Shown: positions 4,756 through 22,335, counted from the first letter of the stretch. The stretch: 26,285 nt of DNA from a virus (IMGVR_UViG_2740892234_000017:1-26285), one strand, 5' to 3'. Program-made: numbers and translations. Notes: generated by a model not told the origin, from the letters alone.

Positions 4756-5208
4756 CTAACGGTCGAGGTGAGCCAGGATAATCTCTTCAATCATCTGCAC
4801 ATCCTCACCGGTAAAGCCGAGCAGAGGACGCGCCGGATAATCAATTTTCTTACCGTCTTTCCGGTTTTCTTCCGACAGACCAAACTGATGCACACTGGCG
4901 ATTTTCGGTGACTTCCCGCCGTAAAACTCCATTGATGCCTGTTCAGGGCTGGCGCGGATATGCAAAAAACGACTGGTGATAAGTTTCGCAAACATTTTTC
5001 GCTTAACACGACCGGTCTTTTTTCTGGCGCTCTGCTGCTGGCGTGGCGCGTAGGGTGTGCCGTCCGGGGCTTTCTGTGCCATCACCCGACGCTGCTGACT
5101 CTGCCGCAGACGTTTCGCCAGTTCGGCACTCAGTCGCCGACGCCCTGACGGTGACAGCGACTCAATCAGTCCGGTCAGCCGGTCTTCAAAACGCTTAAAC
5201 TCATTCAT
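4756..5208 (-). CDS. S: Tail completion / virion morphogenesis protein S
   Basis: 150 aa, the same length as P2 gpS. Basic Arg/Lys/Gln-rich middle region. Position R-S-V. Confidence 0.85.
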   Translation of the reverse strand: MNEFKRFEDRLTGLIESLSPSGRRRLSAELAKRLRQSQQRRVMAQKAPDGTPYAPRQQQSARKKTGRVKRKMFAKLITSRFLHIRASPEQASMEFYGGKSPKIASVHQFGLSEENRKDGKKIDYPARPLLGFTGEDVQMIEEIILAHLDR

Positions 5209-5668
5209 CCCACTTGCTCACCAGTTCGCCATTGATATAAAGCTCCATCGGGCGGGTGACCGGCTCCGGCGGCGTGGGTTCCGGGATATTCTTCACATGC
5301 AGCGCGCCGTCCACCTCACTGACCAGCGTGCGCTCGGTCAGCATCAGGCTGATGCTGATATCAAAGCTGCTGTCATTGTTGATGTCTGCATAAAACGTGA
5401 AGCCCTTTTTCTGGCCTTCGTCAGTGGTCATGATGTCGGGCTGATTTTCCCGCAGCCACGCCAGCACCGGCACGATGAGCAGGTCAAAATCACCGGTAAA
5501 GTCGGTCACAATGACATTGAGCGTGTAACGCTTTTCAAATGACAGCGACGTCGCCAGTGTGGAGGCAATACTCCCGTTATCCACGAATATCCGCAGCATC
5601 TCGGGACTGGTTTTCAGCACCGTGACGGCATCAGTCAGCGCCCTGCGCAGGCTGTCGGGTTTGAGCAT
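5201..5668 (-). CDS. R: Tail completion protein R
   Basis: 155 aa, the same length as P2 gpR. Immediately downstream of the lysis cassette. Confidence 0.85.
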   Translation of the reverse strand: MLKPDSLRRALTDAVTVLKTSPEMLRIFVDNGSIASTLATSLSFEKRYTLNVIVTDFTGDFDLLIVPVLAWLRENQPDIMTTDEGQKKGFTFYADINNDSSFDISISLMLTERTLVSEVDGALHVKNIPEPTPPEPVTRPMELYINGELVSKWDE

Positions 5669-5921
5669 CGTTTTCGTCCTGACAGTGTTTAATCATTTTT
5701 ACCTGGCTGGCACAGCGTGCCAGCGCGTTCTCAAGCTGCCGGATATCGGCACTTAAATCACCGTTCGTCTCCGGGTCACTGCCCGGCATCGGGCAAAGGC
5801 TCACTTTCGGGCAGGCGTTGTGGACAATCACTGGCGTCAGTGCAGGCCGGGCGCTGGTGCAACCGGCGCACAGCATCAGGCAGGTCAGCGCCGTACCAGC
5901 GGCGAAAATCTTCGTTTTCAT
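5631..5921 (-). CDS. lysC: LysC, Rz1-like outer-membrane spanin lipoprotein; overlaps the 3' end of lysB in another frame and the start of R
   Basis: 96 aa, the same length as P2 LysC. Signal peptide with lipobox (MKTKIFAAGTALTCLMLCAGC). Embedded-frame arrangement typical of Rz/Rz1 pairs. Confidence 0.8.
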   Translation of the reverse strand: MKTKIFAAGTALTCLMLCAGCTSARPALTPVIVHNACPKVSLCPMPGSDPETNGDLSADIRQLENALARCASQVKMIKHCQDENDAQTRQPAQGAD

Positions 5922-6628: not shown

Positions 6629-7126
6629 TTAAGCCGGTACGCCGCCGGCGGTACGCCAGACGGTGACCAGTTTTTCCAGTGAATGCTCACGCTGACCGTA
6701 ACCGGCACCCGGCAGGGACGCCCAGATATTGCGACAGCGTGAAATGGCGCGCTCAATGCGTCCCGCCCGGATGTCATCCAGCGCACCGCGTTCGCGGATC
6801 AACTGAATGGCGAGTCTGTCCTGTGACAACGGACTGAAATCCGGCAGGGCAAGCTGTTTGCGGTAATGCGACCAGAACAGGTAAAGCTGCTGATAGCGAC
6901 CGGAGGCCGTGGATTTTTCACCGCGACGGTTAAACACCTTCGCCGGTCGGCCATGCGCGAACGGGTGGTCACTGTAGTCGGTGAAAATTTCCGGCTTCCC
7001 GTCCAGTCCGGTGACTATCACGTCATAGCCCCGGTTTTTCGTCAGCGGATGATTCGCCGTCCCTTCGGACACTGCCAGCATGTCGAGAAAGGCGGCGATA
7101 TTCTGATGCGTGTTAATTACCGGCAT
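6629..7126 (-). CDS. K: Endolysin (P2 gpK)
   Basis: 165 aa, the same length as P2 gpK. Located directly downstream of holin Y. The enzymatic fold (lysozyme/transglycosylase type) is assumed from P2 and was not checked by motif. Confidence 0.9.
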   Translation of the reverse strand: MPVINTHQNIAAFLDMLAVSEGTANHPLTKNRGYDVIVTGLDGKPEIFTDYSDHPFAHGRPAKVFNRRGEKSTASGRYQQLYLFWSHYRKQLALPDFSPLSQDRLAIQLIRERGALDDIRAGRIERAISRCRNIWASLPGAGYGQREHSLEKLVTVWRTAGGVPA

Positions 7127-7407
7127 TACTGTTTCCCCCTGCCCTTAAAGCGGCGCTGAATGGCAATCTCAATCACCTGATAACCGGCGATACCCAGCAT
7201 GGAGCCGATGCCGCACACCGCAGGCAGTGACAGGTCAGGAAACTGCACCAGAACAACACCGGCAACCATCGAGACAAAACCACCGAGCAACATGCGCCCG
7301 ATAAACAGACGCGGGGTGATGGGTTCACCACCGGCAAGCACCTTGCCGACAACAATCAGCACCCCAATCATGAAAAGCGACAGGACGCTTTTTTCTTCTG
7401 CTGTCAT
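7126..7407 (-). CDS. Y: Holin (P2 gpY)
   Basis: 93 aa, the same length as P2 gpY. Hydrophobic helices with a charged C-terminus (RRFKGRGKQ). Confidence 0.9.
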   Translation of the reverse strand: MTAEEKSVLSLFMIGVLIVVGKVLAGGEPITPRLFIGRMLLGGFVSMVAGVVLVQFPDLSLPAVCGIGSMLGIAGYQVIEIAIQRRFKGRGKQ

Positions 7408-7410
7408 GCG

Positions 7411-7614
7411 TTACTCCCACAGATTGACAGTTTCAGCCACGGGCGCGGTCTGAACGTCGGGCAGTTCGACGGCGGTGCCGTGCGGCAGCACCGCACCCAG
7501 TTCAGCCAGTCCCGGATTTGCGACGAGCACGGCCTCGACCACGCCCTCAGTGCGCCCGTAATACCGGACACAGATGGCGTCGAGCGTGTCGCCCTGTAGC
7601 GCAAAGGTCTTCAT
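7411..7614 (-). CDS. X: Tail protein X
   Basis: Start trimmed to the MKTFALQGDTLDAICVRYYGRTEG methionine, giving 67 aa as in P2 gpX. The start overlaps the L stop. Confidence 0.85.
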   Translation of the reverse strand: MKTFALQGDTLDAICVRYYGRTEGVVEAVLVANPGLAELGAVLPHGTAVELPDVQTAPVAETVNLWE

Positions 7615-8123
7615 CAGATTTGACTCACGATGCAGCGCGGCTTGTCCTGGATACGCGCCACTGCCCAGCGCATATCCCGCCACAGCTCATCAATGGTGCT
7701 GTCTATGCTGTCGGCCTTCTTGTCGCCTTTTGCACTGGCATCCACTCCGCGATAACGCTCATAAAGCGACGCGGTCGCCATCGCACACACGGCGCGCTCG
7801 TAGTAAAAAACTTTGATGCTTTCACCGTCGATGTCGTCCGCCGGGACGTCCGCCAGACGCGTAAAACCGGCGGCTATTTTCTGTTCGCGGTACTCGTACA
7901 GCTCCGCATTCGTCTCCGCCATACCTGACTTGATGGCCTCACGCAGACGGGCGGGGGCGACGGTCTGCTCAAGGCGCATACGTTCCCGGACGCGCTTCGG
8001 GTCGATATCGGGAAAAAAGAACGTGTTTTTAATCACCGGCTCGTCGCCTGCCGGTTGCGGGATGACCACCGTACCCTCACCGGACACGGGAGCCTCCTTT
8101 CGCGGAATAATCAGCGTCATCAT
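7614..8123 (-). CDS. L: Head completion / stabilisation protein L
   Basis: Start trimmed to MMTLIIPRKEAPVSGEG, giving 169 aa as in P2 gpL. Confidence 0.85.
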   Translation of the reverse strand: MMTLIIPRKEAPVSGEGTVVIPQPAGDEPVIKNTFFFPDIDPKRVRERMRLEQTVAPARLREAIKSGMAETNAELYEYREQKIAAGFTRLADVPADDIDGESIKVFYYERAVCAMATASLYERYRGVDASAKGDKKADSIDSTIDELWRDMRWAVARIQDKPRCIVSQI

Positions 8124-11123: not shown

Positions 11124-12896
11124 ATGACCATCACCACAGACACCACTCTTTTACACGACCCGCGTCGTCAGGCGGCGCTGCTGTACTGGCAGGGATTTTC
11201 CGTGCCGCAGATTGCCGCCATGTTGCAGATGAAACGCCCGACGGTGCAGAGCTGGAAACAGCGCGACGGCTGGGACAGCGTTGCCCCCATCAGCCGTGTC
11301 GAAATGAGTCTGGAAGCGCGGCTGACCCAGCTCATCATCAAACCGCAGAAAACCGGCGGTGACTTCAAGGAAATTGACCTGCTCGGACGCCAGATTGAAC
11401 GACTGGCACGGGTAAACCGCTACAGTCAGACCGGCAACGAGGCAGACCTTAATCCGAACGTCGCTAACCGCAACAAAGGCGGGCGTCGCAAACCGAAAAA
11501 GAATTTTTTCAGTGACGAGGCCATCGAAAAGCTGGAGCAGATTTTCTTTGAGCAGTCTTTCGACTATCAGTTGCACTGGTATCGCGCCGGGCTTGAGCAC
11601 CGCATCCGCGATATCCTGAAATCCCGCCAGATTGGCGCGACGTTTTATTTTTCCCGCGAGGCGCTGCTGCGCGCCCTGAAAACCGGTCATAACCAGATTT
11701 TTCTGTCGGCCAGTAAAACGCAGGCGTATGTGTTCCGCGAATACATCATCGCCTTTGCCCGGCTGGTTGACGTTGACCTGACCGGTGACCCGATTGTCCT
11801 GGGCAATAACGGCGCAAAACTGATTTTTCTCGGCACCAACTCCAACACCGCACAGAGCCATAACGGCGACCTGTACGTCGACGAGATTTTCTGGATCCCG
11901 AATTTTCAGGTACTGCGTAAGGTGGCATCAGGTATGGCCTCACAGAGCCACCTGCGCTCGACCTATTTCTCCACCCCGTCCACGCTGGCGCACGACGCCT
12001 ACCCATTCTGGTCGGGTGAACTGTTCAACCGGGGACGCGCCAGCGCCGCCGAACGCGTGGAAATCGACGTCAGTCATAACGCCCTTGCCGGGGGGCTTCT
12101 CTGTGCGGACGGCCAGTGGCGGCAGATTGTCACCATTGAGGACGCCCTGAAAGGTGGCTGCACGCTGTTCGACATTGAGCAGCTCAAACGTGAAAACAGC
12201 GCCGACGATTTTAAAAACCTGTTCATGTGTGAATTTGTTGACGACAAGGCGTCGGTGTTCCCGTTCGAGGAGCTGCAACGCTGCATGGTCGACACGCTGG
12301 AAGAATGGGAAGACTATGCGCCGTTTGCCGCGAATCCGTTCGGCTCCCGCCCGGTATGGATTGGTTACGACCCGTCACACCGTGGCGACAGTGCCGGATG
12401 CGTGGTGCTGGCACCGCCGGTGGTGGCCGGTGGCAAATTCAGAATACTTGAGCGTCACCAGTGGAAAGGCATGGACTTTGCCACCCAGGCTGAATCCATC
12501 CGCAAACTCACCGAAAAATACAACGTCGAATACATCGGAATTGATGCCACCGGCCTCGGTGTCGGCGTGTTCCAGCTCGTTCGCTCGTTCTATCCCGCCG
12601 CGCGCGACATCCGCTACACGCCGGAAATGAAAACCGCAATGGTGCTCAAGGCAAAAGACGTTATCCGCCGTGGCTGTCTGGAATATGACGTCAGCGCCAC
12701 CGACATCACCAGCTCGTTTATGGCTATCCGCAAGACCATGACCAGCAGCGGACGCAGCGCCACCTATGAGGCCAGCCGCAGCGAGGAAGCCAGCCACGCC
12801 GACCTCGCCTGGGCGACCATGCACGCCCTGTTAAATGAGCCACTCACCGCCGGTATCAGCACCCCGCTGACATCCACCATTCTGGAGTTTTACTGA
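11124..12896 (+). CDS. P: Terminase ATPase (large) subunit P
   Basis: Start set at the ATG at 11124 (MTITTDTTLLHDPRRQ), which has a GAGG ribosome-binding site; the ORF track begins at an upstream TTG. 590 aa, the same length as P2 gpP. Confidence 0.92.
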   Translation: MTITTDTTLLHDPRRQAALLYWQGFSVPQIAAMLQMKRPTVQSWKQRDGWDSVAPISRVEMSLEARLTQLIIKPQKTGGDFKEIDLLGRQIERLARVNRYSQTGNEADLNPNVANRNKGGRRKPKKNFFSDEAIEKLEQIFFEQSFDYQLHWYRAGLEHRIRDILKSRQIGATFYFSREALLRALKTGHNQIFLSASKTQAYVFREYIIAFARLVDVDLTGDPIVLGNNGAKLIFLGTNSNTAQSHNGDLYVDEIFWIPNFQVLRKVASGMASQSHLRSTYFSTPSTLAHDAYPFWSGELFNRGRASAAERVEIDVSHNALAGGLLCADGQWRQIVTIEDALKGGCTLFDIEQLKRENSADDFKNLFMCEFVDDKASVFPFEELQRCMVDTLEEWEDYAPFAANPFGSRPVWIGYDPSHRGDSAGCVVLAPPVVAGGKFRILERHQWKGMDFATQAESIRKLTEKYNVEYIGIDATGLGVGVFQLVRSFYPAARDIRYTPEMKTAMVLKAKDVIRRGCLEYDVSATDITSSFMAIRKTMTSSGRSATYEASRSEEASHADLAWATMHALLNEPLTAGISTPLTSTILEFY

Positions 12897-13930
12897 TGAG
12901 CAAGAAAAAAGGGAAAACACCGCGACCTGCGGCAAAAACAATGACCGCCAGCGCCCCGAAAATGGAGGCATTCACCTTTGGTGAGCCGGTGCCGGTACTC
13001 GACCGCCGTGACATTCTGGATTACGTCGAATGCATCAGTAACGGCAGATGGTATGAGCCGCCGGTCAGCTTTACCGGTCTGGCAAAAAGTCTGCGTGCTG
13101 CCGTGTATCACAGTTCACCGATTTACGTCAAACGTAATATTCTGGCTTCAACGTTTATCCCGCACCCGTGGCTTTCCCAGCAGGATTTCAGCCGCTTTGT
13201 GCTGGATTTTCTGGTGTTCGGTAATGCGTTTCTGGAAAAGCGTTACAGCACCACCGGTAAGGTCATCAGACTGGAAACCTCACCGGCAAAATATACCCGC
13301 CGTGGCGTGGAGGAGGATGTTTACTGGTGGGTGCCGTCCTTCAACGAGCCGACACCTTTCGCGCCCGGCTCCGTGTTTCACCTGCTGGAGCCGGATATTA
13401 ATCAGGAGCTGTACGGCCTGCCGGAATATCTCAGCGCCCTTAACTCTGCCTGGCTGAATGAATCAGCCACGCTGTTCCGCCGCAAGTATTACGAAAACGG
13501 CGCACATGCCGGATACATCATGTACGTCACCGATGCCGTGCAGGATCGCAACGATATCGAAATGCTTCGCGAAAACATGGTGAAGTCGAAAGGCCGCAAC
13601 AACTTTAAAAATCTGTTTCTCTATGCCCCACAAGGGAAAGCCGACGGCATTAAAATTATCCCGCTCAGTGAAGTGGCGACGAAGGACGATTTTTTTAATA
13701 TCAAAAAAGCCAGTGCCGCAGACCTGCTGGACGCGCACCGCATCCCCTTTCAGTTGATGGGCGGCAAGCCGGAGAACGTCGGGGCGCTGGGTGATATTGA
13801 GAAAGTGGCAAAGGTCTTTGTCCGCAATGAGCTTATCCCGTTACAGGACAGGATTCGGGAAATAAACGGCTGGCTCGGTCAGGAGGTCATCCGCTTTAAA
13901 AACTACTCACTGGACACTGACAACGACTGA
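12896..13930 (+). CDS. Q: Portal protein Q
   Basis: 344 aa, the same length as P2 gpQ. Start overlaps the P stop. Followed by a terminator and the cos site. Confidence 0.92.
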   Translation: MSKKKGKTPRPAAKTMTASAPKMEAFTFGEPVPVLDRRDILDYVECISNGRWYEPPVSFTGLAKSLRAAVYHSSPIYVKRNILASTFIPHPWLSQQDFSRFVLDFLVFGNAFLEKRYSTTGKVIRLETSPAKYTRRGVEEDVYWWVPSFNEPTPFAPGSVFHLLEPDINQELYGLPEYLSALNSAWLNESATLFRRKYYENGAHAGYIMYVTDAVQDRNDIEMLRENMVKSKGRNNFKNLFLYAPQGKADGIKIIPLSEVATKDDFFNIKKASAADLLDAHRIPFQLMGGKPENVGALGDIEKVAKVFVRNELIPLQDRIREINGWLGQEVIRFKNYSLDTDND

Positions 13931-14099: not shown

Positions 14100-14118
14100 G
14101 TGCTTTCCCCGCCTCGCC
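14100..14118. other. P2-type cos site (19-nt cohesive-end sequence), internal to the prophage
   Basis: GTGCTTTCCCCGCCTCGCC is the reverse complement of the P2 cohesive end as I recall it (GGCGAGGCGGGGAAAGCAC). It lies about 170 bp beyond the Q stop, as in P2. Confidence 0.75.
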
Positions 14119-14359
14119 CGCCCGCTTCATGGGGCGGTTTTAATGCAAACGCATCAGGAAGGGCAGACCTAGTCACATGTAGAATACGATAGCAATAAAA
14201 AAGTCTAATTAGAATGCAAATTGATGCAACTCTATGCCCTCCAAGAACTCCAAACCTGAAAGATTTATGTAAAACATAGTGTTCGTTTCACCAAAATACA
14301 TATAAACTACATTAAAATAGAAATTTGTCTCACCTATAAGCCATTTAGACAACAGATTA

Positions 14360-15523
14360 ATGAGGTTTGTATCACAAATGACCACAAACGAGATACTTTC
14401 GCAGCTTATCAGTCTTGGACTCAAAGGGGATAAAGTTGCTTTTGTTCGGCAGGCTTCGAAACTCGCGCGTTCCTATGATTCTATGGGGCTGCCTGAGCTT
14501 GCTTCAGCCATTAGAGGCAGTATTCAAGATAAAAACACGTTTAACTTGCAGAAAGTATCACGTAGTACATCACCTATTTTTGAACGTCTTGATACATTAC
14601 CTGTAGATAAAGAAACTAAATTTGATTTAGCAGACGTAACTCAACCGTCTTCTGAAATTCAACTCCCATTGTTGAAAGATAGCACTCTGAAAAAAATTAA
14701 AGAATTTTTGACTTTCACTGAACGAGCTAAAGAATTAAAGGATGCCGGTCTTGGCGTGACATCCTCTATGATTTTATATGGGCCACCAGGTTGTGGTAAA
14801 ACCTTGACATCAAAATATATTGCATCCTGTCTAAATTTACCGCTTCTTACTGCAAGATGTGACTCCTTAGTCTCATCATATCTGGGGTCTACTTCTAAAA
14901 ATATCAGGCAGCTATTTGAGTATGCAAGTAAAGCACCATGTGTTTTATTTCTAGATGAACTAGATTCTCTAGCAAAGGCTAGAGATGATCAGCATGAGTT
15001 AGGTGAACTGAAGAGGGTGGTGGTTTCTTTATTGCAAAATATTGACAATCTACCTGAAGAAACAATATTGATTGCTGCAAGTAATCATGAAAATCTTCTA
15101 GATAGCGCAGTTTGGAGGCGCTTTGAGTATAGAATATCTATTGGATTGCCTGATTTTGAAGTCAGAAAACAACTATTTGAACAATATTCAAACATAAAAG
15201 CCACATATGACGATTTTGTTGATGACCTTGCGGAAATATCCTCAGGGCTAAACTGCTCATTTATAGAACAATGCTGCTTAAGATCTGAGCGACATGCTCT
15301 GGTTTACAATAATAAACAAATCGATACCCGATTTTTAGTCGAGGCTATCTTAGAAGCGAAGGGAGTTACATTTGATGAAGAAGATAATTTACTTATAAAG
15401 ATTGTGACCACTCTCAGAGAATACAATCCCAAAAGATTTACAATACGAAAGATAGCAAAAATACTAGGGCTTTCAAATGCTAAAGTGTCAAGGCTAACTA
15501 AGAACTATAGAGAGATATTATGA
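14360..15523 (+). CDS. AAA+ ATPase, candidate IetA-like component of a two-gene ATPase/protease defence system
   Basis: 387 aa. Walker A GPPGCGKT, Walker B VLFLDELD, sensor-1 AASNH, arginine-finger-like AVWRRF. AT-rich codon usage unlike the P2 backbone. An alternative start is the ATG at 14378. The stop overlaps the protease start (ATGA). Confidence 0.85.
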   Translation: MRFVSQMTTNEILSQLISLGLKGDKVAFVRQASKLARSYDSMGLPELASAIRGSIQDKNTFNLQKVSRSTSPIFERLDTLPVDKETKFDLADVTQPSSEIQLPLLKDSTLKKIKEFLTFTERAKELKDAGLGVTSSMILYGPPGCGKTLTSKYIASCLNLPLLTARCDSLVSSYLGSTSKNIRQLFEYASKAPCVLFLDELDSLAKARDDQHELGELKRVVVSLLQNIDNLPEETILIAASNHENLLDSAVWRRFEYRISIGLPDFEVRKQLFEQYSNIKATYDDFVDDLAEISSGLNCSFIEQCCLRSERHALVYNNKQIDTRFLVEAILEAKGVTFDEEDNLLIKIVTTLREYNPKRFTIRKIAKILGLSNAKVSRLTKNYREIL

Positions 15524-17784
15524 GTAACAAAGAAAGACCAATAAAAATAATTGAGGCGACACCTCAAGATTTTACTGAAAAAACATATAATTTCGGAAAG
15601 AAACAACCTATCCGAACAGTAACAACTAGTCTAAAAAATAGACTCAAACAAGAAGTCGATGACGTTAAAAATTTTTTCCAGAGCTCATTTAAAAAATGGC
15701 CCAATATACCGGCGGTGGCTAGAGTTACTCTTCATGAAAAAGCTCTTGCTAAGTCACATCGCCCATCAAGCCTATTAGGTGATAATACATGTCCCGTAAT
15801 AGGCAGTGATAATTTTGGAGAATTACTTATAAGTGTTACTGAAAAAGGGTTAGCACAACTTCGCAAAAAAATTGAAAATAGCACTAATTCTCATAATGGG
15901 ACAGTACATATTGCTGTAATTGAAAAGATCGAACCTTTTAGTCTTAACCATGATGTTATAGATAAAAATAAATCAGATAGTTTTCTTCTGAAACTCTTTG
16001 ACCATAAAGATAGAACAACTAACCGCAGTATCGACAAAGAATTAATGGAATTTGCAGATGAACTAGGAATACAAAAACCCAAAAAGTATGATATCAGTTC
16101 AGATTTGAGTATATATGAAGTAAAAGGGAATGATAACATCGCCCAACTGGCAAGTTTTATTGGCATACGAAAATTAGAACCTATGCCAACATTTGGTCTT
16201 ACTCATACAGTATCGCAATATATTCCTGCTGAAACTCTAGACCTAGATGATTTTCCCTTACCTCAAGAGGATAAACATTATCCACTACTCGGAATTATAG
16301 ATAGCGGAGTCGATCCCAATAACAACATACTTAGGCCATGGATTTGGGATAGTTTAGATTTAGTAAAAGGAGAACACGACTATTCTCATGGGAACATGGT
16401 TGCAAGTTTAGCAATTAATGGAAGATGGTTGAATAACTATGCTGGTTTTCCTCAATGCCAAGCTGAAATTGTTGATGTTGCAGCCTTTCCCAAAGATGGT
16501 ACGCTCAAATTGCCACAATTAATGAAAGCTATCCGAGAGGCTGTGACCACCTATCCAGAAGTACGTGTATGGAACCTGTCATTAGGTTGTCAATCCCCAT
16601 GTTCTGAAGACAGCTTCTCTGAATTGGGGCATTTTTTAAATGCACTTCATGATGAGCATGATTGTCTTTTCGTCGTAGCATCCGGCAACTACATTTATGA
16701 TCCTCAACGAACCTGGCCTCCTCAAGAATTAGGTGGGCATGACAGAATATCAGCCCCCGCAGATTCTGTTCGTTCATTAACTGTTGGCTCAGTTGCCCAT
16801 TTAGAATCGTCTGACTCTGTGGTCAAAAGATTTGAACCTTCATCTTTTTCTAGAAGAGGTCCCGGCCCAGCCTTTATACCCAAACCAGAGATAAATCACT
16901 TTGGAGGTAATTGTGACAGTAAATTAAACTGTGAACATACCGGAATCATAGCTATTGGCGAGGACAATGCTCTTTGCGAAAGTATTGGCACAAGTTTATC
17001 AGCACCGTTAATCTCAAGTTTAGCGGCATCACTGTGGCATGAACTAGATGTTAATGGTTCTATTTCACCATCGCCTGAACGTATCAAGGCACTATTAATT
17101 CATTCTGCGTTAAAAAACTCACCAGCCAAAACGGAGCATTATGCGTTTAATTATCAAGGATTTGGACGCCCAAGCGATCATATAAATGATATTATTGGTT
17201 GCAATAAAAATGAGATTACATTTCTATTTGAAATAGATACCCGAGAAGGTATTGAATTCAGTAGAACGCCATTTGTAATACCACAGTCATTACGTACTGA
17301 GGATGGAAAATTCACAGGTGAAATTATTATGACACTCGTTTATTCTCCACCGCTTGATTATGACTACCCATCTGAATATTGCCGTTCTAATGTGGATGTG
17401 TCATTCGGGACTTACACTTATGATCCAGTTAACGCTAAATGGATACATAGCGGAAAAATTCCACAAATAAAAGAAAAGAGTGAATTATTTGAAAAGGTAC
17501 TGATAGAAAATGGCTTCAAATGGTCTCCAGTCAAAGTTTATAGAAAACAATTTCCGCAAGGTATAAATGGGGAGCAATGGAGACTTAAACTTGATGTTCA
17601 GAGACGAGCAGAGCAAGAGCCTCTATCTTCACCTCAACGTGCTGTATTGGCTATTACGTTAAGATCTCTTGCCAATTCTACTACAGTCTACAACGAAGCC
17701 GAGGTTGAAATAAATAATCTTGGTTGGAAAGAAACTGATATTGTTGTTCGTGAACAACCAAAAATCAGGATTCGTCAAAAATAA
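15520..17784 (+). CDS. Subtilisin-like serine protease (peptidase S8) with N- and C-terminal extension domains, candidate IetS-like component
   Basis: 754 aa. Catalytic triad motifs in canonical order: Asp (GIIDSGVD), His (HGNMVASLA), Ser (GTSLSAPLISS). Translationally coupled to the upstream ATPase. Confidence 0.85.
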   Translation: MSNKERPIKIIEATPQDFTEKTYNFGKKQPIRTVTTSLKNRLKQEVDDVKNFFQSSFKKWPNIPAVARVTLHEKALAKSHRPSSLLGDNTCPVIGSDNFGELLISVTEKGLAQLRKKIENSTNSHNGTVHIAVIEKIEPFSLNHDVIDKNKSDSFLLKLFDHKDRTTNRSIDKELMEFADELGIQKPKKYDISSDLSIYEVKGNDNIAQLASFIGIRKLEPMPTFGLTHTVSQYIPAETLDLDDFPLPQEDKHYPLLGIIDSGVDPNNNILRPWIWDSLDLVKGEHDYSHGNMVASLAINGRWLNNYAGFPQCQAEIVDVAAFPKDGTLKLPQLMKAIREAVTTYPEVRVWNLSLGCQSPCSEDSFSELGHFLNALHDEHDCLFVVASGNYIYDPQRTWPPQELGGHDRISAPADSVRSLTVGSVAHLESSDSVVKRFEPSSFSRRGPGPAFIPKPEINHFGGNCDSKLNCEHTGIIAIGEDNALCESIGTSLSAPLISSLAASLWHELDVNGSISPSPERIKALLIHSALKNSPAKTEHYAFNYQGFGRPSDHINDIIGCNKNEITFLFEIDTREGIEFSRTPFVIPQSLRTEDGKFTGEIIMTLVYSPPLDYDYPSEYCRSNVDVSFGTYTYDPVNAKWIHSGKIPQIKEKSELFEKVLIENGFKWSPVKVYRKQFPQGINGEQWRLKLDVQRRAEQEPLSSPQRAVLAITLRSLANSTTVYNEAEVEINNLGWKETDIVVREQPKIRIRQK

Positions 17785-17789
17785 GCATT

Positions 17790-17814
17790 ATGGTCACCTT
17801 TTATAGGTGACCAT
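17790..17814. terminator. Perfect hairpin between convergent operons, a candidate bidirectional terminator
   Basis: ATGGTCACC-TTTTATA-GGTGACCAT: a 9-bp perfect stem between the protease stop (17784) and the membrane-protein stop (17818). There is no strong U-tract on either strand. Confidence 0.5.
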
Positions 17815-17817
17815 TTA

Positions 17818-18579
17818 CTACACCTTATTATTTTCAACTATTTTATGAATATCCATATCAAACCAAGAAACTTGCGAAATTTCTTTTAGTGGAAAGATGA
17901 TACTAGTATCAGCATCCTCAAGTTCTCTATATTCATTCACCAAGATTACTTTCAATGAATCCTTATCTCTATACCCAGAGATAATAGGATAGATTGAAAC
18001 ATACTGGTTAGGTCCTTCTTTCTCGTTAGGCTCACCTAATGCGTTAACAATTCCTACATATGTCTTTTTATTTTGCAACGTAATAAGTATTGAACGTCTA
18101 TCAACTAACGAATCAAAAAATATTTCATCCATTGGATTATCATTAATAAGCTCTTGCCTCATCCTTAGCATGACAAGATTCTCATAATCAATATTGGCAG
18201 CCTTTACCCCTTGGATATAATTTATAATTTTAGCTCTATATATAACCAAATATCTAGCACCGGCACTCCATATCCAAGCCAAAAATATCGATCCACATGA
18301 AAGTAAAATCATCCATCCTATGATTCTTTCAGTACCATTATCACTAAGTTTGAGATCTAATTGTTCCCGAACCATCGTGACAGGATGGAAGCTCGGACAT
18401 ATCCATTTTATTAAGTAAGCTATAATCAATGTCCATATAAAACACCACAGACCAAAGGCGGCTGACTTCATATATAACAACTGCCCATCATAACGGTGTA
18501 ATCTATAGAAATGATAAGGATGAGTGGTTAATACAATATAACCACTCACAAGTAATGGAATAATTAATAAAGCAAACAT
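17818..18579 (-). CDS. Hypothetical membrane protein with about three N-terminal transmembrane helices and a soluble C-terminal domain
   Basis: 253 aa. Hydrophobic segments at roughly residues 1-18, 39-57 and 87-103. AT-rich. Translationally coupled to the upstream 78-aa gene. No recognisable catalytic motif. Confidence 0.7.
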   Translation of the reverse strand: MFALLIIPLLVSGYIVLTTHPYHFYRLHRYDGQLLYMKSAAFGLWCFIWTLIIAYLIKWICPSFHPVTMVREQLDLKLSDNGTERIIGWMILLSCGSIFLAWIWSAGARYLVIYRAKIINYIQGVKAANIDYENLVMLRMRQELINDNPMDEIFFDSLVDRRSILITLQNKKTYVGIVNALGEPNEKEGPNQYVSIYPIISGYRDKDSLKVILVNEYRELEDADTSIIFPLKEISQVSWFDMDIHKIVENNKV

Positions 18580-18581
18580 TA

Positions 18582-18818
18582 TTAATTCCCTTTAGCCATT
18601 TTTTCTTCTTGCTTTACCTGCTCAGAAACTATTCTTCTTGCTTTAATTTTCATCAATTTTACTGTATCTGAGCTTGCCAAGTCTTCTTTAGACGTGATAA
18701 TCGCGCCTCGACCTACCACCTCAACAGTGTTTGTTCCAGATGCTTCAAGCCTCCTCGCCAGTTCTCTTTCCTTTTCAATGGCAGCTTTACCTATAATACG
18801 TTCAAATATATTCATCAT
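18582..18818 (-). CDS. Hypothetical small protein (78 aa), first gene of a two-gene operon with the membrane protein
   Basis: Strong ribosome-binding site (GGAGG-TTAA-ATG). Charged, probably cytoplasmic. Function not recognised. Confidence 0.65.
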   Translation of the reverse strand: MMNIFERIIGKAAIEKERELARRLEASGTNTVEVVGRGAIITSKEDLASSDTVKLMKIKARRIVSEQVKQEEKMAKGN

Positions 18819-19126
18819 TTAACCTCCACTTGATTGATGCCAAGATAGTAATCACCTCCTCACAATATCTTACCAACCTAACAATTAACAGAACACTGTG
18901 TATAAGTCCAGTATAGTTTAATTAATAAATTAGGCAAATCTATCAAAATGGTATTTTGTTAAAAATTCAGCTAACTCTGAGGTTGGTAAAACAGTCCACC
19001 AGATGTATCGCTAAAGCACTTAGAAACCACTATAACCATCCTAAGTGTACCAGTCAGTCTGTTTGTCTAATCGCATCACTATGCTCGTTATTCTATCCCC
19101 CGCCAATCCTGAGCTGGCTGCGTTCT

Positions 19127-19345
19127 CTATCGTCTGCGTGGTGGCGATGCAGCGCTGGACTGACCGATATAGCTAAGCCATACGTAATTATCCCGGACTA
19201 TTTCGGCACACCCGACTAGCTCATCGGGCGTCAGATTTTCGTTGACCATAATCTGCTGTAGACGGTGAACAATGGCCATCAGCTTGATATTTTTAGTTTT
19301 ATGGTGCGGTATCTCGCCTGGTATTCTGTGCATTATCCAAGCCAC
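19127..19345 (-). CDS. Small hypothetical ORF at the junction of the P2 backbone and the AT-rich cargo; may be a remnant of a displaced gene
   Basis: 72-aa ORF with backbone-like GC content. No recognisable motif. Weakly supported. Confidence 0.25.
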   Translation of the reverse strand: MAWIMHRIPGEIPHHKTKNIKLMAIVHRLQQIMVNENLTPDELVGCAEIVRDNYVWLSYIGQSSAASPPRRR

Positions 19346-19788
19346 CCGTTTTGCGGTGCACGCTCCATCTGTTCATCTGAATAGTTCCATGCTCCATCCG
19401 TGGCAACCATTGCCCCGCCAGACATCCCCGTCTCTGGTTCATACATAACAGCAAGGCCGAGCTGATGCATAATTTCATGATTAATTCTGAATACCAGACC
19501 ACGCTCACTAAGTTCTTTCCAGTTCACAATCTCATATGCGCCTGTATTAAGCAGCTCAATACTTAGCAAGACATAATCTTCCAGCCAATCTGACAGGTCA
19601 GTAACATCTGTTATCCGGGCTTCAACCTTTCGCCCCGTATACACACCCTGCACCCATTCATGCAAAATCAACGTGTCCCCGTGCTCATAATTACGGTCAT
19701 TTTTCCTAAACTCTGCGCGTTTCTTTCCTTCCAGCACAAGGTCGAAATATTTTGCGTGCAGCTTTACCTCGTGAATTTTTGCCATCAT
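19333..19788 (-). CDS. Hypothetical protein with an N-terminal ASCH-like / DUF3850-type domain, downstream of A
   Basis: Start set at the ATG overlapping the A stop (ATGATGG). MAKIHEVKLHAKYFDLVLEGKKRAEFRKNDRNYEHGDTLILHEW resembles the DUF3850/ASCH pattern as I recall it. 151 aa. Confidence 0.6.
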   Translation of the reverse strand: MMAKIHEVKLHAKYFDLVLEGKKRAEFRKNDRNYEHGDTLILHEWVQGVYTGRKVEARITDVTDLSDWLEDYVLLSIELLNTGAYEIVNWKELSERGLVFRINHEIMHQLGLAVMYEPETGMSGGAMVATDGAWNYSDEQMERAPQNGWLG

Positions 19789-22070
19789 GTCCACTCCATT
19801 ACTGTTGAGAATCCCGGCCACTCATCAGCGACCGGATACGTGAATTTTTTCCCGTCATAATTTACGGTTGCCCCACGCGCCAGCGCCTCAATCTCCCATC
19901 GCTGCGGCCTGATACCGTTCTGAGCAAGGTCAACGCGGATACGGGTAATTTGCGTTCGTTCCGACCGGGTCAGTCTGGCCGATGGCGCTATTTCATGTGG
20001 TTTTAACAGGCTTCCGTTTCTCTGCTGACGATTTGGTGTTCTCAGTCCGTGTTTTAATGCACCTCTGAGCGCCCTCACGACCTCTGGCTCATTCCATTCG
20101 ATAACACCGTCATCAACCAGATTAAGCACGGCTGCGGCATGTTCAGAAGGTGTGGGAACCGGTAACGAAGTATCACCACCGGAGAGCTTTCCACAGTTAT
20201 TGACAGGACTCCGAGGCGCGGCGATGCCGCTTTTTAAAGTCAAAGGCTCAACGACCGGAACTTTCGGCACGATGCGCCAGTCCGTCGTTCTGGTGATATG
20301 AATATGACGCGCGCCGAGATGCGGCGCGTAAATGCCGACCACTCTCTCGACTTCTTCCTCGTACTCGTTAACTTCATCCGACGGGCTACGGGCGACCCTG
20401 ACAGTCTGACAATCGCGCGGGACATTTGCCCCGCCCTGCGCGCTGATATACAACGCAAAATCGCCACTGTCTGCGGCGGCGCGTGCAGCCTCCACGCGTT
20501 CGTCAAATTCATCAGCAATGCTGACGCCGCGAGGCAATTTACGTAGCTCACGGTAAGCTCCCATTGTCGGCAGGCCAACCGTTTTAAATTGCGGGATGCG
20601 CCACGTTGACGCCCATGCGGTAACAGCCGCCGCAGTATCTTTCAGCGGTCTGCCGGTATCGTTATCGAGCTGACCATCCAGTGCATAGCCGTCGATATTT
20701 TTTGAAATGTATTTCGCGATATATCCCGCAGCACCGCCCCGGTTAAGGTGTTTTGCCTGAAAACGGTTTCGCGCGGCTCCTCTTTCGTCGCCATCCTCTT
20801 TGAGCGCATAGCGACGCATGATTTCGATAATCTGGTTACGCTGGCGTGGATTACAAAAAAGCATCATATGCCAGTGCGGCGTTCCGTCGTGGTGTGGCTC
20901 GACGACTCGCAAACCGTAGACCTGTAAATCATTATCCTTGAATGCCGTGCGCATCAGGCTCCAGATACGGCAGAGATAACGCTGCGCATCCTTTGGATTA
21001 AATGCCTCATCATTCCAGCCGTGATTAAGCTGGACGGTTTTATTTTCGCCTTTTCCAACCTGACGTGTCGGGTGATACTTTGACGGCGCGGTAAGCGTGA
21101 TAAACATCCCCACATCACCCTCTGAGGCGGCGTAACGCTCAATACCGGCAATGGTGTTCATCAGCTCCATCCGGCGAATTTCAGGATTAGAAATACTGCC
21201 CATCACCTTACTGATAAGGTCGATGCGCTCGCCGGTTTCCCTGTTTTCAAGGTCACACGATTTAAGAAATTCCAGATTTGCCTGGCGGCGCGCACGCACA
21301 TCACGAATGGCATGTTTACTGGCATAAGGTGAACGGTCTTTATTGACCTCCCCGACAGCAATCAGTAACGCCTCATGCCAGCGCATACGCTGGCCTTTAA
21401 GCTGACTAATCCACCACTCATCGTTAAACAGGCGGGCAATGGCAGAATATGCCTGCCTCGTGGTCATCTGTCCTTTACGGTATTTTTTCCAGTAGAGAGG
21501 GGAAATATTGAAAGCACGTGCAGCGCCAGCAACATGACCATACAGATGCGCCTGCGCCTCATCTGTAAACAGCGATTCTTTCTCGCCATGTGCATCAACC
21601 CATGCATCGCAAAGTTCCTCATACATCATGAAAAGCTGCGATGAGATACGGGCGGCAAACTTTTTCAGCTCCTTGTCATTCATCCCCGGCAGACGCGCAT
21701 AATGGTCACGCTCTGCCAGAAACAGCAACGACGCGTCGGTGTTCATTTCATGGCGCTGATTCACGCGCTCAATACGCGGCCATAAACGGCGCTGAAAAGT
21801 GGATGTGAGGAAATAAAACCCGTGCACCGGGCTTTTATTGCGCCGGATGTAGTCATAGCGTGAAGTAAACAGCGAGCGCAAAAAGTAAGGCAGGCGATTA
21901 ATCGTGGATAAAACACCTTGCACCTGACGCATCTCGTCACGTGTAAGGGGTCTTTCGCGCCCGACGGCCTCGCGTGGCGCGTTCCATGCATAAGCACCGG
22001 TAAACGTCTCACCGGTGCCTGCGGCAAATGCTGACGGAGGGACAAAACGCCCGGAGGCTTTAACGGCCAT
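19785..22070 (-). CDS. A: Replication initiation protein A (rolling-circle initiator)
   Basis: Start trimmed to MAVKASGRFVPPSAF, giving 761 aa as in P2 gpA. Contains the VVEPHHDGTPHWHMMLF and GYIAKYISKN regions typical of P2 A-type initiators. Confidence 0.92.
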   Translation of the reverse strand: MAVKASGRFVPPSAFAAGTGETFTGAYAWNAPREAVGRERPLTRDEMRQVQGVLSTINRLPYFLRSLFTSRYDYIRRNKSPVHGFYFLTSTFQRRLWPRIERVNQRHEMNTDASLLFLAERDHYARLPGMNDKELKKFAARISSQLFMMYEELCDAWVDAHGEKESLFTDEAQAHLYGHVAGAARAFNISPLYWKKYRKGQMTTRQAYSAIARLFNDEWWISQLKGQRMRWHEALLIAVGEVNKDRSPYASKHAIRDVRARRQANLEFLKSCDLENRETGERIDLISKVMGSISNPEIRRMELMNTIAGIERYAASEGDVGMFITLTAPSKYHPTRQVGKGENKTVQLNHGWNDEAFNPKDAQRYLCRIWSLMRTAFKDNDLQVYGLRVVEPHHDGTPHWHMMLFCNPRQRNQIIEIMRRYALKEDGDERGAARNRFQAKHLNRGGAAGYIAKYISKNIDGYALDGQLDNDTGRPLKDTAAAVTAWASTWRIPQFKTVGLPTMGAYRELRKLPRGVSIADEFDERVEAARAAADSGDFALYISAQGGANVPRDCQTVRVARSPSDEVNEYEEEVERVVGIYAPHLGARHIHITRTTDWRIVPKVPVVEPLTLKSGIAAPRSPVNNCGKLSGGDTSLPVPTPSEHAAAVLNLVDDGVIEWNEPEVVRALRGALKHGLRTPNRQQRNGSLLKPHEIAPSARLTRSERTQITRIRVDLAQNGIRPQRWEIEALARGATVNYDGKKFTYPVADEWPGFSTVMEWT

Positions 22071-22335
22071 ATGAGCCAAAAGCCTCTGAACAACGCTTGC
22101 TGAGTTGCTCAACCTGCGCGTTTAAATCAGCAAAAGACTTTGCGCTTCCGGTCAGAATATCGTGATGCATCAGGCCGGAAACGAGCTGGCTTAATTTCGG
22201 GTAATAACCAACCACCGCCAACCATTCCTGACCGGCGTTTTTACCGCTTTCAGCTCTCTTTTTCTCGTGGAGAATAAACTGAAAGCTGTCACTGGTAACG
22301 ACATAACGTTCGCCAATTTCAATACGAATACTCAT
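22060..22335 (-). CDS. Small early-operon protein (P2 orf80-83 region)
   Basis: 91 aa. Immediately upstream of A, as in the P2 early operon. Confidence 0.7.
   Translation of the reverse strand: MSIRIEIGERYVVTSDSFQFILHEKKRAESGKNAGQEWLAVVGYYPKLSQLVSGLMHHDILTGSAKSFADLNAQVEQLSKRCSEAFGSYGR

Follow-up and report, generated by a model that had tools for sequence, protein, structure and literature searches.

The window considered here is a stretch of 26,285 nucleotides of viral DNA (IMGVR_UViG_2740892234_000017:1-26285), and positions 14,360 to 17,784 of it encode a AAA+ ATPase followed by a subtilisin-like S8 protease. These two genes very probably form an IetAS system (IteAS in the spelling of NCBI), that is, a toxin-antitoxin-type abortive-infection module, carried as cargo in the hotspot of a P2-like prophage next to yegR/yegS. 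The pair ietA-ietS was reportedly at first a toxin-antitoxin pair of an Agrobacterium Ti plasmid, and IetAS/IteAS is said to have been presented as an anti-phage system by Gao et al. in 2020. A preliminary description of the DNA, made from the sequence, had considered the pair to be either an IetAS homologue or a distinct system of the same architecture.

Family assignment of the ATPase-protease pair

Profile comparisons place the pair within the IetAS family proper, as a divergent clade set somewhat apart from the sequences of the NCBI models. The PADLOC profile of IetA (PDLC02196) matches the ATPase with an E-value of 9.1e-132 over residues 9–382 (profile positions 3–370 of 374), and the profile of IetS (PDLC02197) matches the protease with an E-value of 1.1e-273 over residues 1–747 (profile positions 1–747 of 749). 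Full-length matches were likewise obtained with the NCBIfam models IteA_antiphage (NF042959; 387.3 bits, cut-off 510) and IteS_antiphage (NF042956; 782.4 bits, cut-off 900), both of which are the top match by a wide margin. The scores below the cut-offs explain why the RefSeq names of the two proteins are generic, and NCBI gives the name "S8 family anti-phage peptidase IteS" to some relatives with 43–44% identity. The strong full-length matches of both proteins to the PADLOC and NCBIfam profiles supply the comparison that the preliminary description had called for, and they decide its question of homologue or look-alike in favour of a homologue. The NCBIfam models of housekeeping AAA+ families remain far under their cut-offs when compared with IetA (FtsH 96.6 of 600 bits, PAN 103 of 500, CDC48 92 of 803 and ClpX 26 of 359), and the AAA module alone is what IetA and these families have in common.

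Organisation of the gene pair

The two genes are adjacent and have the same orientation, with the ATPase gene first. This order, ATPase followed by S8 protease, is constant in all homologous loci fetched. The overlap by ATGA that had been noticed beforehand is present, and covers 4 nt at 15520–15523. Among the relatives, this overlap is limited to the Escherichia coli/Citrobacter/Enterobacter bugandensis and Yersinia lineages. Other members of the clade have a gap of ~8–36 nt between ietA and ietS, and strict translational coupling is therefore not a feature of the family.

The open reading frame of ietA can be extended to an upstream ATG at 14360, giving a protein of 387 amino acids (14360..15523, + strand), and this was the start adopted in the preliminary description. 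The ATG at 14378 is more likely to be the start, because it is the one annotated by RefSeq, because the matches to the PADLOC, NCBIfam and PHROG profiles start at this point, and because a GAGG is found 11 nt upstream. The coordinates of the two genes, their motifs and the surrounding features are given in Table 1.

Table 1. Features of the ietAS region and of its surroundings in the window. Residues of the IetA motifs are counted from the start at 14378.
Feature	Nucleotides	Strand	Residues	Remarks
Portal gene Q	12896-13930
P2-type cos cohesive-end sequence	14100..14118			GTGCTTTCCCCGCCTCGCC, reverse complement of GGCGAGGCGGGGAAAGCAC; exact string match
Low-GC variable cargo island	14141..19113			~5 kb, between portal gene Q and the conserved orf/ASCH/gpA block (~19114 on)
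ietA	14378..15523	+	381 aa	AAA+ ATPase of the classic clade; RefSeq WP_000210436, "AAA family ATPase"
IetA Walker A, GPPGCGKT	14780-14803	+	135-142
IetA pore-loop-1-like motif, SYLG	14876-14887	+
IetA Walker B, VLFLDELD	14942-14965	+	189-196
IetA sensor 1, AASNH	15074-15088	+	233-237
IetA Arg fingers, AVWRRF	15107-15124	+	244-249
IetA helix-turn-helix-like tail	15446-15496	+		Sub-threshold profile matches
ietS	15520..17784	+	754 aa	S8 subtilase; RefSeq WP_000066157, "S8 family peptidase"
IetS N-terminal alpha/beta region			1-245
IetS catalytic domain			255-550	Pfam Peptidase_S8 (PF00082), E 7e-24, residues 255-549
IetS Asp motif, IDSGVD	16297-16314	+	260-265
IetS His motif, HGNMVAS	16387-16407	+	290-296
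IetS oxyanion Asn motif	16678-16692	+		N390
IetS Ser motif, GTSLSAPL	16987-17010	+	490-497
IetS C-terminal beta-sandwich			565-745
Hairpin, 10-bp stem	17790..17814			Between the convergent ietS and p253; from a scan for terminator-like sites
p253	17818..18579	-	253 aa	phrog_3630; three predicted transmembrane helices, predicted C-terminal Sm/Hfq-like beta-barrel
p78	18582..18818	-	78 aa	phrog_37504, E 3e-53; soluble protein, 2 nt upstream of p253 in the same operon
Replication endonuclease (gpA)	19785-22112

The ATPase IetA

IetA belongs to the Cdc48/FtsH/PAN clade, as a single-ring AAA+ ATPase with an additional helix-turn-helix (HTH)-like tail. The Pfam family AAA (PF00004) matches residues 137–262 of the 387-residue reading frame from 14360 with an E-value of 1e-31, and the best sequence relatives of IetA in the PDB are VAT, p97/Cdc48 and AFG2 (E 1e-48 to 2e-50). 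The same PDB search returned no solved structure of IetA or IetS, only generic AAA ATPases and subtilases (the subtilases with E-values of 5e-4 or weaker). Every member of the complete AAA+ motif set that had been reported for the first gene could be located. In an alignment of seven IetA sequences Walker A, Walker B, Asn236 of sensor 1 and Arg247/Arg248 are invariant. The stretch S166-S167-Y168-L169-G170 has S166, S167, L169 and G170 invariant in the same alignment, and its S-Y-L-G motif presumably occupies the position of pore loop 1 in classic AAA unfoldases.

About fifteen HTH families match the tail of IetA at the same residues, among them HTH_28 (E 0.001), HTH_23 (E 0.002) and HTH_50 (E 0.014). 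The HTH-like tail of the preliminary description thus has the coincidence of many families at one position in its favour, but every one of these matches is below threshold.

The protease IetS

Judged from its sequence, IetS is a cytoplasmic S8 subtilase. Inspection of its N-terminus (MSNKERPIKIIEATPQDF...) revealed no signal-peptide-like hydrophobic stretch, and it is for this reason that the enzyme is placed in the cytoplasm. The subtilase triad (IDSGVD, HGNMVAS and GTSLSAPL) is intact, as had been stated before, and D261, H290 and S492 as well as the oxyanion residue N390 are invariant in an alignment of 58 homologues.

An AlphaFold2 model of IetS, built from the 58 homologues, reached a predicted local distance difference test (pLDDT) score of 90.4 and a predicted template modelling (pTM) score of 0.91. 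In this model the N-terminal region comprises two successive beta-alpha-beta-beta-alpha-beta units (residues ~65–139 and 154–221), and a linker of lower confidence (residues 231–240, pLDDT 60) precedes the S8 domain. The top structural matches are ProN-Tk-SP (3afg), KP-43 (1wmd), pro-subtilisin E (3whi) and CspB (4i0w), all of them unprocessed or propeptide-retaining subtilases with C-terminal beta-domains; which domain of IetS pairs with which part of the target was judged from the aligned lengths and the order of secondary structure elements. According to the predicted structure, the N-terminal region appears to resemble a retained subtilase propeptide and the C-terminal domain a beta-sandwich of the Tk-SP/KP-43 type. 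IetS would then look like a zymogen that is held latent. The preliminary description had assigned to IetS two extensions of about 250 residues that may act as sensor or substrate-recognition modules. The C-terminal extension is shorter, ~205 residues, and the proposed roles are refined rather than confirmed by the model, which points to a propeptide-like domain and a beta-sandwich.

The first N-terminal alpha/beta unit of IetS contains the motif A75-x-A77-K78-S79-H80-R81-P82 (nt 15745–15765 for residues 76–82). Its residues A75, A77, K78, R81 and P82 are invariant, and S79 and H80 nearly so, among the 58 homologues. The core K-S-x-x-P is kept even in a distant allele that is abundant in P2-like prophages, where it reads LGKSYFP. 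The motif could be a processing site, an element recognised by IetA, or a latch.

The C-terminal beta-sandwich of IetS carries the invariant residues E619-Y620-C621 and K667-W668 (nt 17374–17391 and 17512–17529, for residues 619–624 and 665–670). Their conservation suggests that this domain offers a surface for binding and is more than a passive stabiliser.

Location in the P2 defence hotspot

The window represents an E. coli prophage of the P2-like (Peduovirus) type. In strain SC480 a copy with 99.8% identity adjoins yegR/yegS; the genes annotated in this copy are those for tail, baseplate, lysis, capsid, terminase, portal, replication endonuclease, cox, repressor and integrase. At 14100–14118 the window has a string which we take to be the cos site of P2. 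This string marks the left edge of the cargo island with the ietAS pair and lies directly before a drop in guanine-plus-cytosine (GC) content, which is 36.7% in the island (14141–19126), whereas the DNA on its left has 56.1% and that on its right 47.6%. The island therefore adjoins the packaging site, an arrangement also described for the P2/P4 hotspots. The complete island is present in 12 of 5426 complete E. coli genomes with 99.3–99.8% identity. Its flanks match 2157 of these genomes, together with 75 records of P2-like phages (mostly Peduovirus, Escherichia and Yersinia), and the complete island was found in no sequenced phage record.

The location corresponds exactly to the defence hotspot that P2-like prophages have between gpQ and gpA and that varies among otherwise similar prophages. 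It was described by Rousset 2022 (PMC9122126) as a cos-proximal anti-phage hotspot which is rich in validated anti-phage systems, and which also holds non-defence cargo such as partition systems. Table S5A of that study lists WP_000210436 and WP_000066157 at the P2 hotspot with the same hypothetical neighbours, and in Table S5B system 7, consisting of AAA and Peptidase_S8 with 400 occurrences, is labelled "ietAS (Gao et al, 2020)". The family, its presence in the P2 hotspot and these very protein accessions are hence already known from public annotation and a published supplementary table. The setting in a P2 defence hotspot fits a role of the pair in defence.

Comparison with characterised and related systems

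The likeness of the pair to IetAS/IteAS (Gao et al. 2020) comprises the co-oriented genes for a AAA+ ATPase and then an S8 protease, the full-length profile matches, the intact catalytic residues of both enzymes and the carriage by a mobile element. What differs are the NCBIfam scores under the cut-offs, the identity of ~43–44% to IteS as named by NCBI and, for the clade of the window, a conserved convergent neighbour, the p78-p253 operon. With the abundant P2 allele (system 7 of Table S5B) the pair shares the gpQ-gpA hotspot, the combination of AAA (+HTH) and Peptidase_S8, the core motifs of IetA and L-[AG]-K-S-x-x-P near the N-terminus of IetS. The abundant allele has its 400 occurrences and a Leu in the pore loop, whereas the allele of the window occurs in the 12 complete genomes given above and has a Tyr at this position.

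The ietHAS system (Liu-DS4; NAR 2026, PMC13069673) resembles the arrangement in the window in having an IetAS core plus an extra conserved genetic partner. That partner is a co-oriented SNF2 helicase which was shown to be required, whereas the neighbour in the window is convergent and consists of p78 and the membrane protein p253. The partner gene of ietHAS is a precedent for IetAS clades that recruit accessory components. The island has no helicase reading frame, and an ietHAS-type variant is thereby ruled out.

Proposed mode of action

For other homologues it has been reported that the toxin is IetS and that IetA counteracts it as antitoxin, that protease activity is needed for defence, and that an ietA mutant was unobtainable (PMC13069673). 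The same paper cites the original description of IetAS as a toxin-antitoxin system that stabilises a plasmid, in which the protease is the toxin and the ATPase the antitoxin. IetAS of B. cereus acts by abortive infection, and becomes toxic once yosG of SPbeta is expressed (10.1101/2022.08.27.505566). The ietAS of E. coli ECOR52 has also been tested, and E. coli ietAS was noted to be prophage-borne (10.1101/2022.08.21.504612).

By analogy with these homologues, toxin-antitoxin behaviour, defence, the need for the active site, abortive infection and a phage trigger may apply to the pair in the window as well. In the uninfected cell IetA would keep IetS harmless in an ATP-dependent manner, thereby acting as antitoxin. 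A product of the phage, or an effect of the infection, would break this restraint, and the freed IetS would cleave cellular proteins, phage proteins or both, so that the infected cell stops before phage progeny are released. The clonal lysogens would be protected by this, and hence the prophage too. The propeptide-like domain may serve as the latch of IetS and IetA as its unfoldase-type partner. A propeptide latch, an unfoldase activity of IetA, autoregulation through the HTH-like tail and a transfer of the properties of homologues to the clade of the window are all features that we infer here.

The finding identifies the defence system correctly and shows that such systems can be recognised in raw sequence, as in the preliminary description, but both the system and its prophage hotspot were known already, and little new biology is added. 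It is of some value since the mechanism of IetAS is still unsolved (PMC13069673), and it offers testable handles in the zymogen-like IetS, the invariant A-x-A-K-S-H-R-P motif, a Cdc48-type partner with an HTH-like tail and the conserved pair of neighbouring genes, p78 and p253.

Several observations weigh against the assignment to a toxin-antitoxin-type abortive-infection module. The scores of IetA and IetS under the NCBIfam equivalog cut-offs are the only one of the membership tests to speak against the family. Compared with the abundant P2 allele, IetA is 34% identical, and for IetS a BLASTP comparison, which included ~400 residues of the allele, gave ~29% identity over 72 N-terminal residues; given these values, functional equivalence to the tested homologues is an extrapolation by analogy. 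Tyr168 of the pore loop is replaced by Leu in the same allele, so the aromatic residue is not family-wide. A search of the literature retrieved no experiment on the IetAS clade of the window. The occlusion of the active site of IetS by its N-terminal domain is something that we infer from the predicted structure. Upstream of ietA no convincing promoter or operator was found by a scan for sigma-70 sites and a repeat search: the scan gave 18 sites against 17.8 expected from shuffled sequence, with none on the + strand from cos to ietA, and the repeats upstream of ietA were weak or short only.

Alternative explanations

That the pair could be an ordinary housekeeping or secreted protease with its chaperone, unrelated to defence, is suggested by RefSeq, which gives the genes no more specific names than "AAA family ATPase" and "S8 family peptidase". 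This is extremely improbable, because IetS lacks a signal-peptide-like stretch at its N-terminus, the genes are located on a low-GC island in a prophage hotspot and occur in 12 of 5426 E. coli genomes, and the housekeeping models score far under their cut-offs while the IetA and IetS profiles match in full length. The scores against the profiles, the sporadic occurrence and the location on a prophage island together rule out a housekeeping protease/chaperone pair. It is rather doubtful that IetAS serves mainly as a post-segregational killing module, which stabilises its prophage or element and has no main role in phage defence. The first description of IetAS as a plasmid-stabilising toxin-antitoxin system, as cited in PMC13069673, would agree with such a function, as would the partition systems and other non-defence cargo of the P2 hotspot (PMC9122126). 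In the same clade, members adjoin RepB/ParB genes and one is found on a plasmid with a type IV secretion system. Defence by IetAS homologues has nevertheless been demonstrated repeatedly, the hotspot is rich in validated anti-phage systems, and the roles in addiction and in defence are mutually compatible. A two-component protease, in which IetA unfolds substrates and feeds them to IetS as in ClpX-ClpP or the PAN-proteasome, is conceivable though rather improbable. The antitoxin effect of IetA would in this case stem from limiting the reach of IetS. Membership of IetA in the classic AAA unfoldase clade, with VAT and p97/Cdc48 as matches in the PDB and PAN and FtsH among those in NCBIfam, is consistent with it, and so are the S-Y-L-G motif, presumably at the position of pore loop 1, with its invariant S166, S167, L169 and G170, and the tight coupling of the genes by the ATGA overlap. 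Subtilases are not self-compartmentalised, however, the top structural matches of IetS include no ring-forming protease, and the aromatic residue of the pore loop has become Leu in another IetA clade.

The neighbours p253 and p78 have also to be considered, as the convergent p78-p253 operon might work together with IetAS in a four-gene system, be it as a membrane effector, as a sensor which, by way of the Sm/WYL-like domain of p253, is cleaved by IetS or passes a signal to IetA, or as the substrate of IetS. We regard this as unlikely. In its support, p253 and p78 are arranged tail to tail with ietS, at a constant 40–54 nt, in every examined locus with an IetS of at least 59% identity; these loci represent eight species (E. 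coli, Enterobacter cloacae, E. bugandensis, Citrobacter youngae, Scandinavium, Pectobacterium, Yersinia enterocolitica and Providencia rettgeri). The linkage holds across at least four kinds of mobile element, including P2/186-like prophages, an integrase/RepB-ParB element and chromosomal islands, and the identities of IetA, IetS, p253 and p78 fall in parallel from 85/91/87/89% to 57/59/55/54%. The predicted combination of three transmembrane helices with an Sm-like barrel, which resembles the WYL sensors of defence regulators, would suit such a partner. On the other hand, p78-p253 is convergent, has its own promoter side and is split from ietS by a hairpin. It also occurs alone, with no IetAS within 5–7 kb, in E. 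coli, Atlantibacter, Mangrovibacter, Scandinavium and Pseudomonas, and it is missing beside IetS homologues of at most 51% identity (on a metagenome contig, in Acinetobacter, on a Dongshaea plasmid and in one other case). Two-gene IetAS systems of other clades defend unaided (PMC13069673, 10.1101/2022.08.27.505566, 10.1101/2022.08.21.504612). Moreover, a composite cassette that moves in one piece explains the linkage in this small sample of ~9 independent contexts equally well.

The neighbouring p78-p253 genes

The hairpin that separates ietS from the convergent p253 is likely a bidirectional terminator; the region is enriched in terminator-like sites (10 against 3.0 expected). Neither p253 nor p78 has a match in Pfam, PADLOC or NCBIfam, and both match only PHROGs of unknown function. 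A homologue of p78 adjoins the p253 homologue in all enterobacterial loci examined. The structure model of p253 is of moderate confidence (pLDDT 80.8, pTM 0.58). Its predicted barrel resembles Sm/Hfq-like proteins (Hfq) as well as the ligand-binding WYL domains of DriD, BrxR and CapW. This likeness is at the level of the fold model only, and p253 differs from the Hfq and WYL proteins in being membrane-anchored through its three predicted helices.

In Yersinia enterocolitica the four-gene block occupies the same hotspot of a 186/P2-like prophage, and the block of Providencia rettgeri is part of the integrase/RepB-ParB element. Relatives of p253 that are at most 48% identical are found without IetAS, typically just downstream of the integrase at a prophage border, and the p78-p253 family comprises 241 clusters. 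The simplest interpretation takes p78-p253 for an autonomous module of prophage borders that became fused with one IetAS lineage into a mobile composite cassette, and it is possibly a separate exclusion or abortive-infection system. It could be a second system that travels with IetAS or a component that has been missing from it; a working four-gene system, if true, would offer a first handle on the substrates of IetS or on the sensing of infection. As a widespread prophage-border "moron", the p78-p253 family can reasonably be regarded as a candidate exclusion or abortive-infection system of a new kind. As far as we found, the four-gene arrangement of this IetAS clade appears to be undescribed.

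Stand-alone p78-p253 paralogues with 45–48% identity were observed in E. coli, Atlantibacter, Mangrovibacter and Scandinavium, with the p253 homologue at 5001–5819 or 7001–7819 in most of the loci. In the contig collection, 1851 blocks are indexed for the very common E. coli paralogue of p253 (48% identity). Single p253-like genes with 25–31% identity occur in Pseudomonas.

In E. cloacae (L002/L003; 4795–9278 and 13130–14029) the four-gene block is found a few kb from yegS. The yegS neighbourhood is also the region of integration of the P2-like prophage in E. coli, and no P2 structural genes are visible in the 14-kb E. cloacae locus. Either a remnant of a prophage or a separate island that uses the same attachment region could account for this block.

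Between the island and gpA, at 19127–19785 on the - strand, the window encodes a protein of 68 amino acids (phrog_11386) and a DUF3850/ASCH-like protein (phrog_1812), the latter with weaker similarity to phrog_986, "RNA-binding protein". These two genes belong to the conserved flank that is common to P2, Wphi and many prophages.

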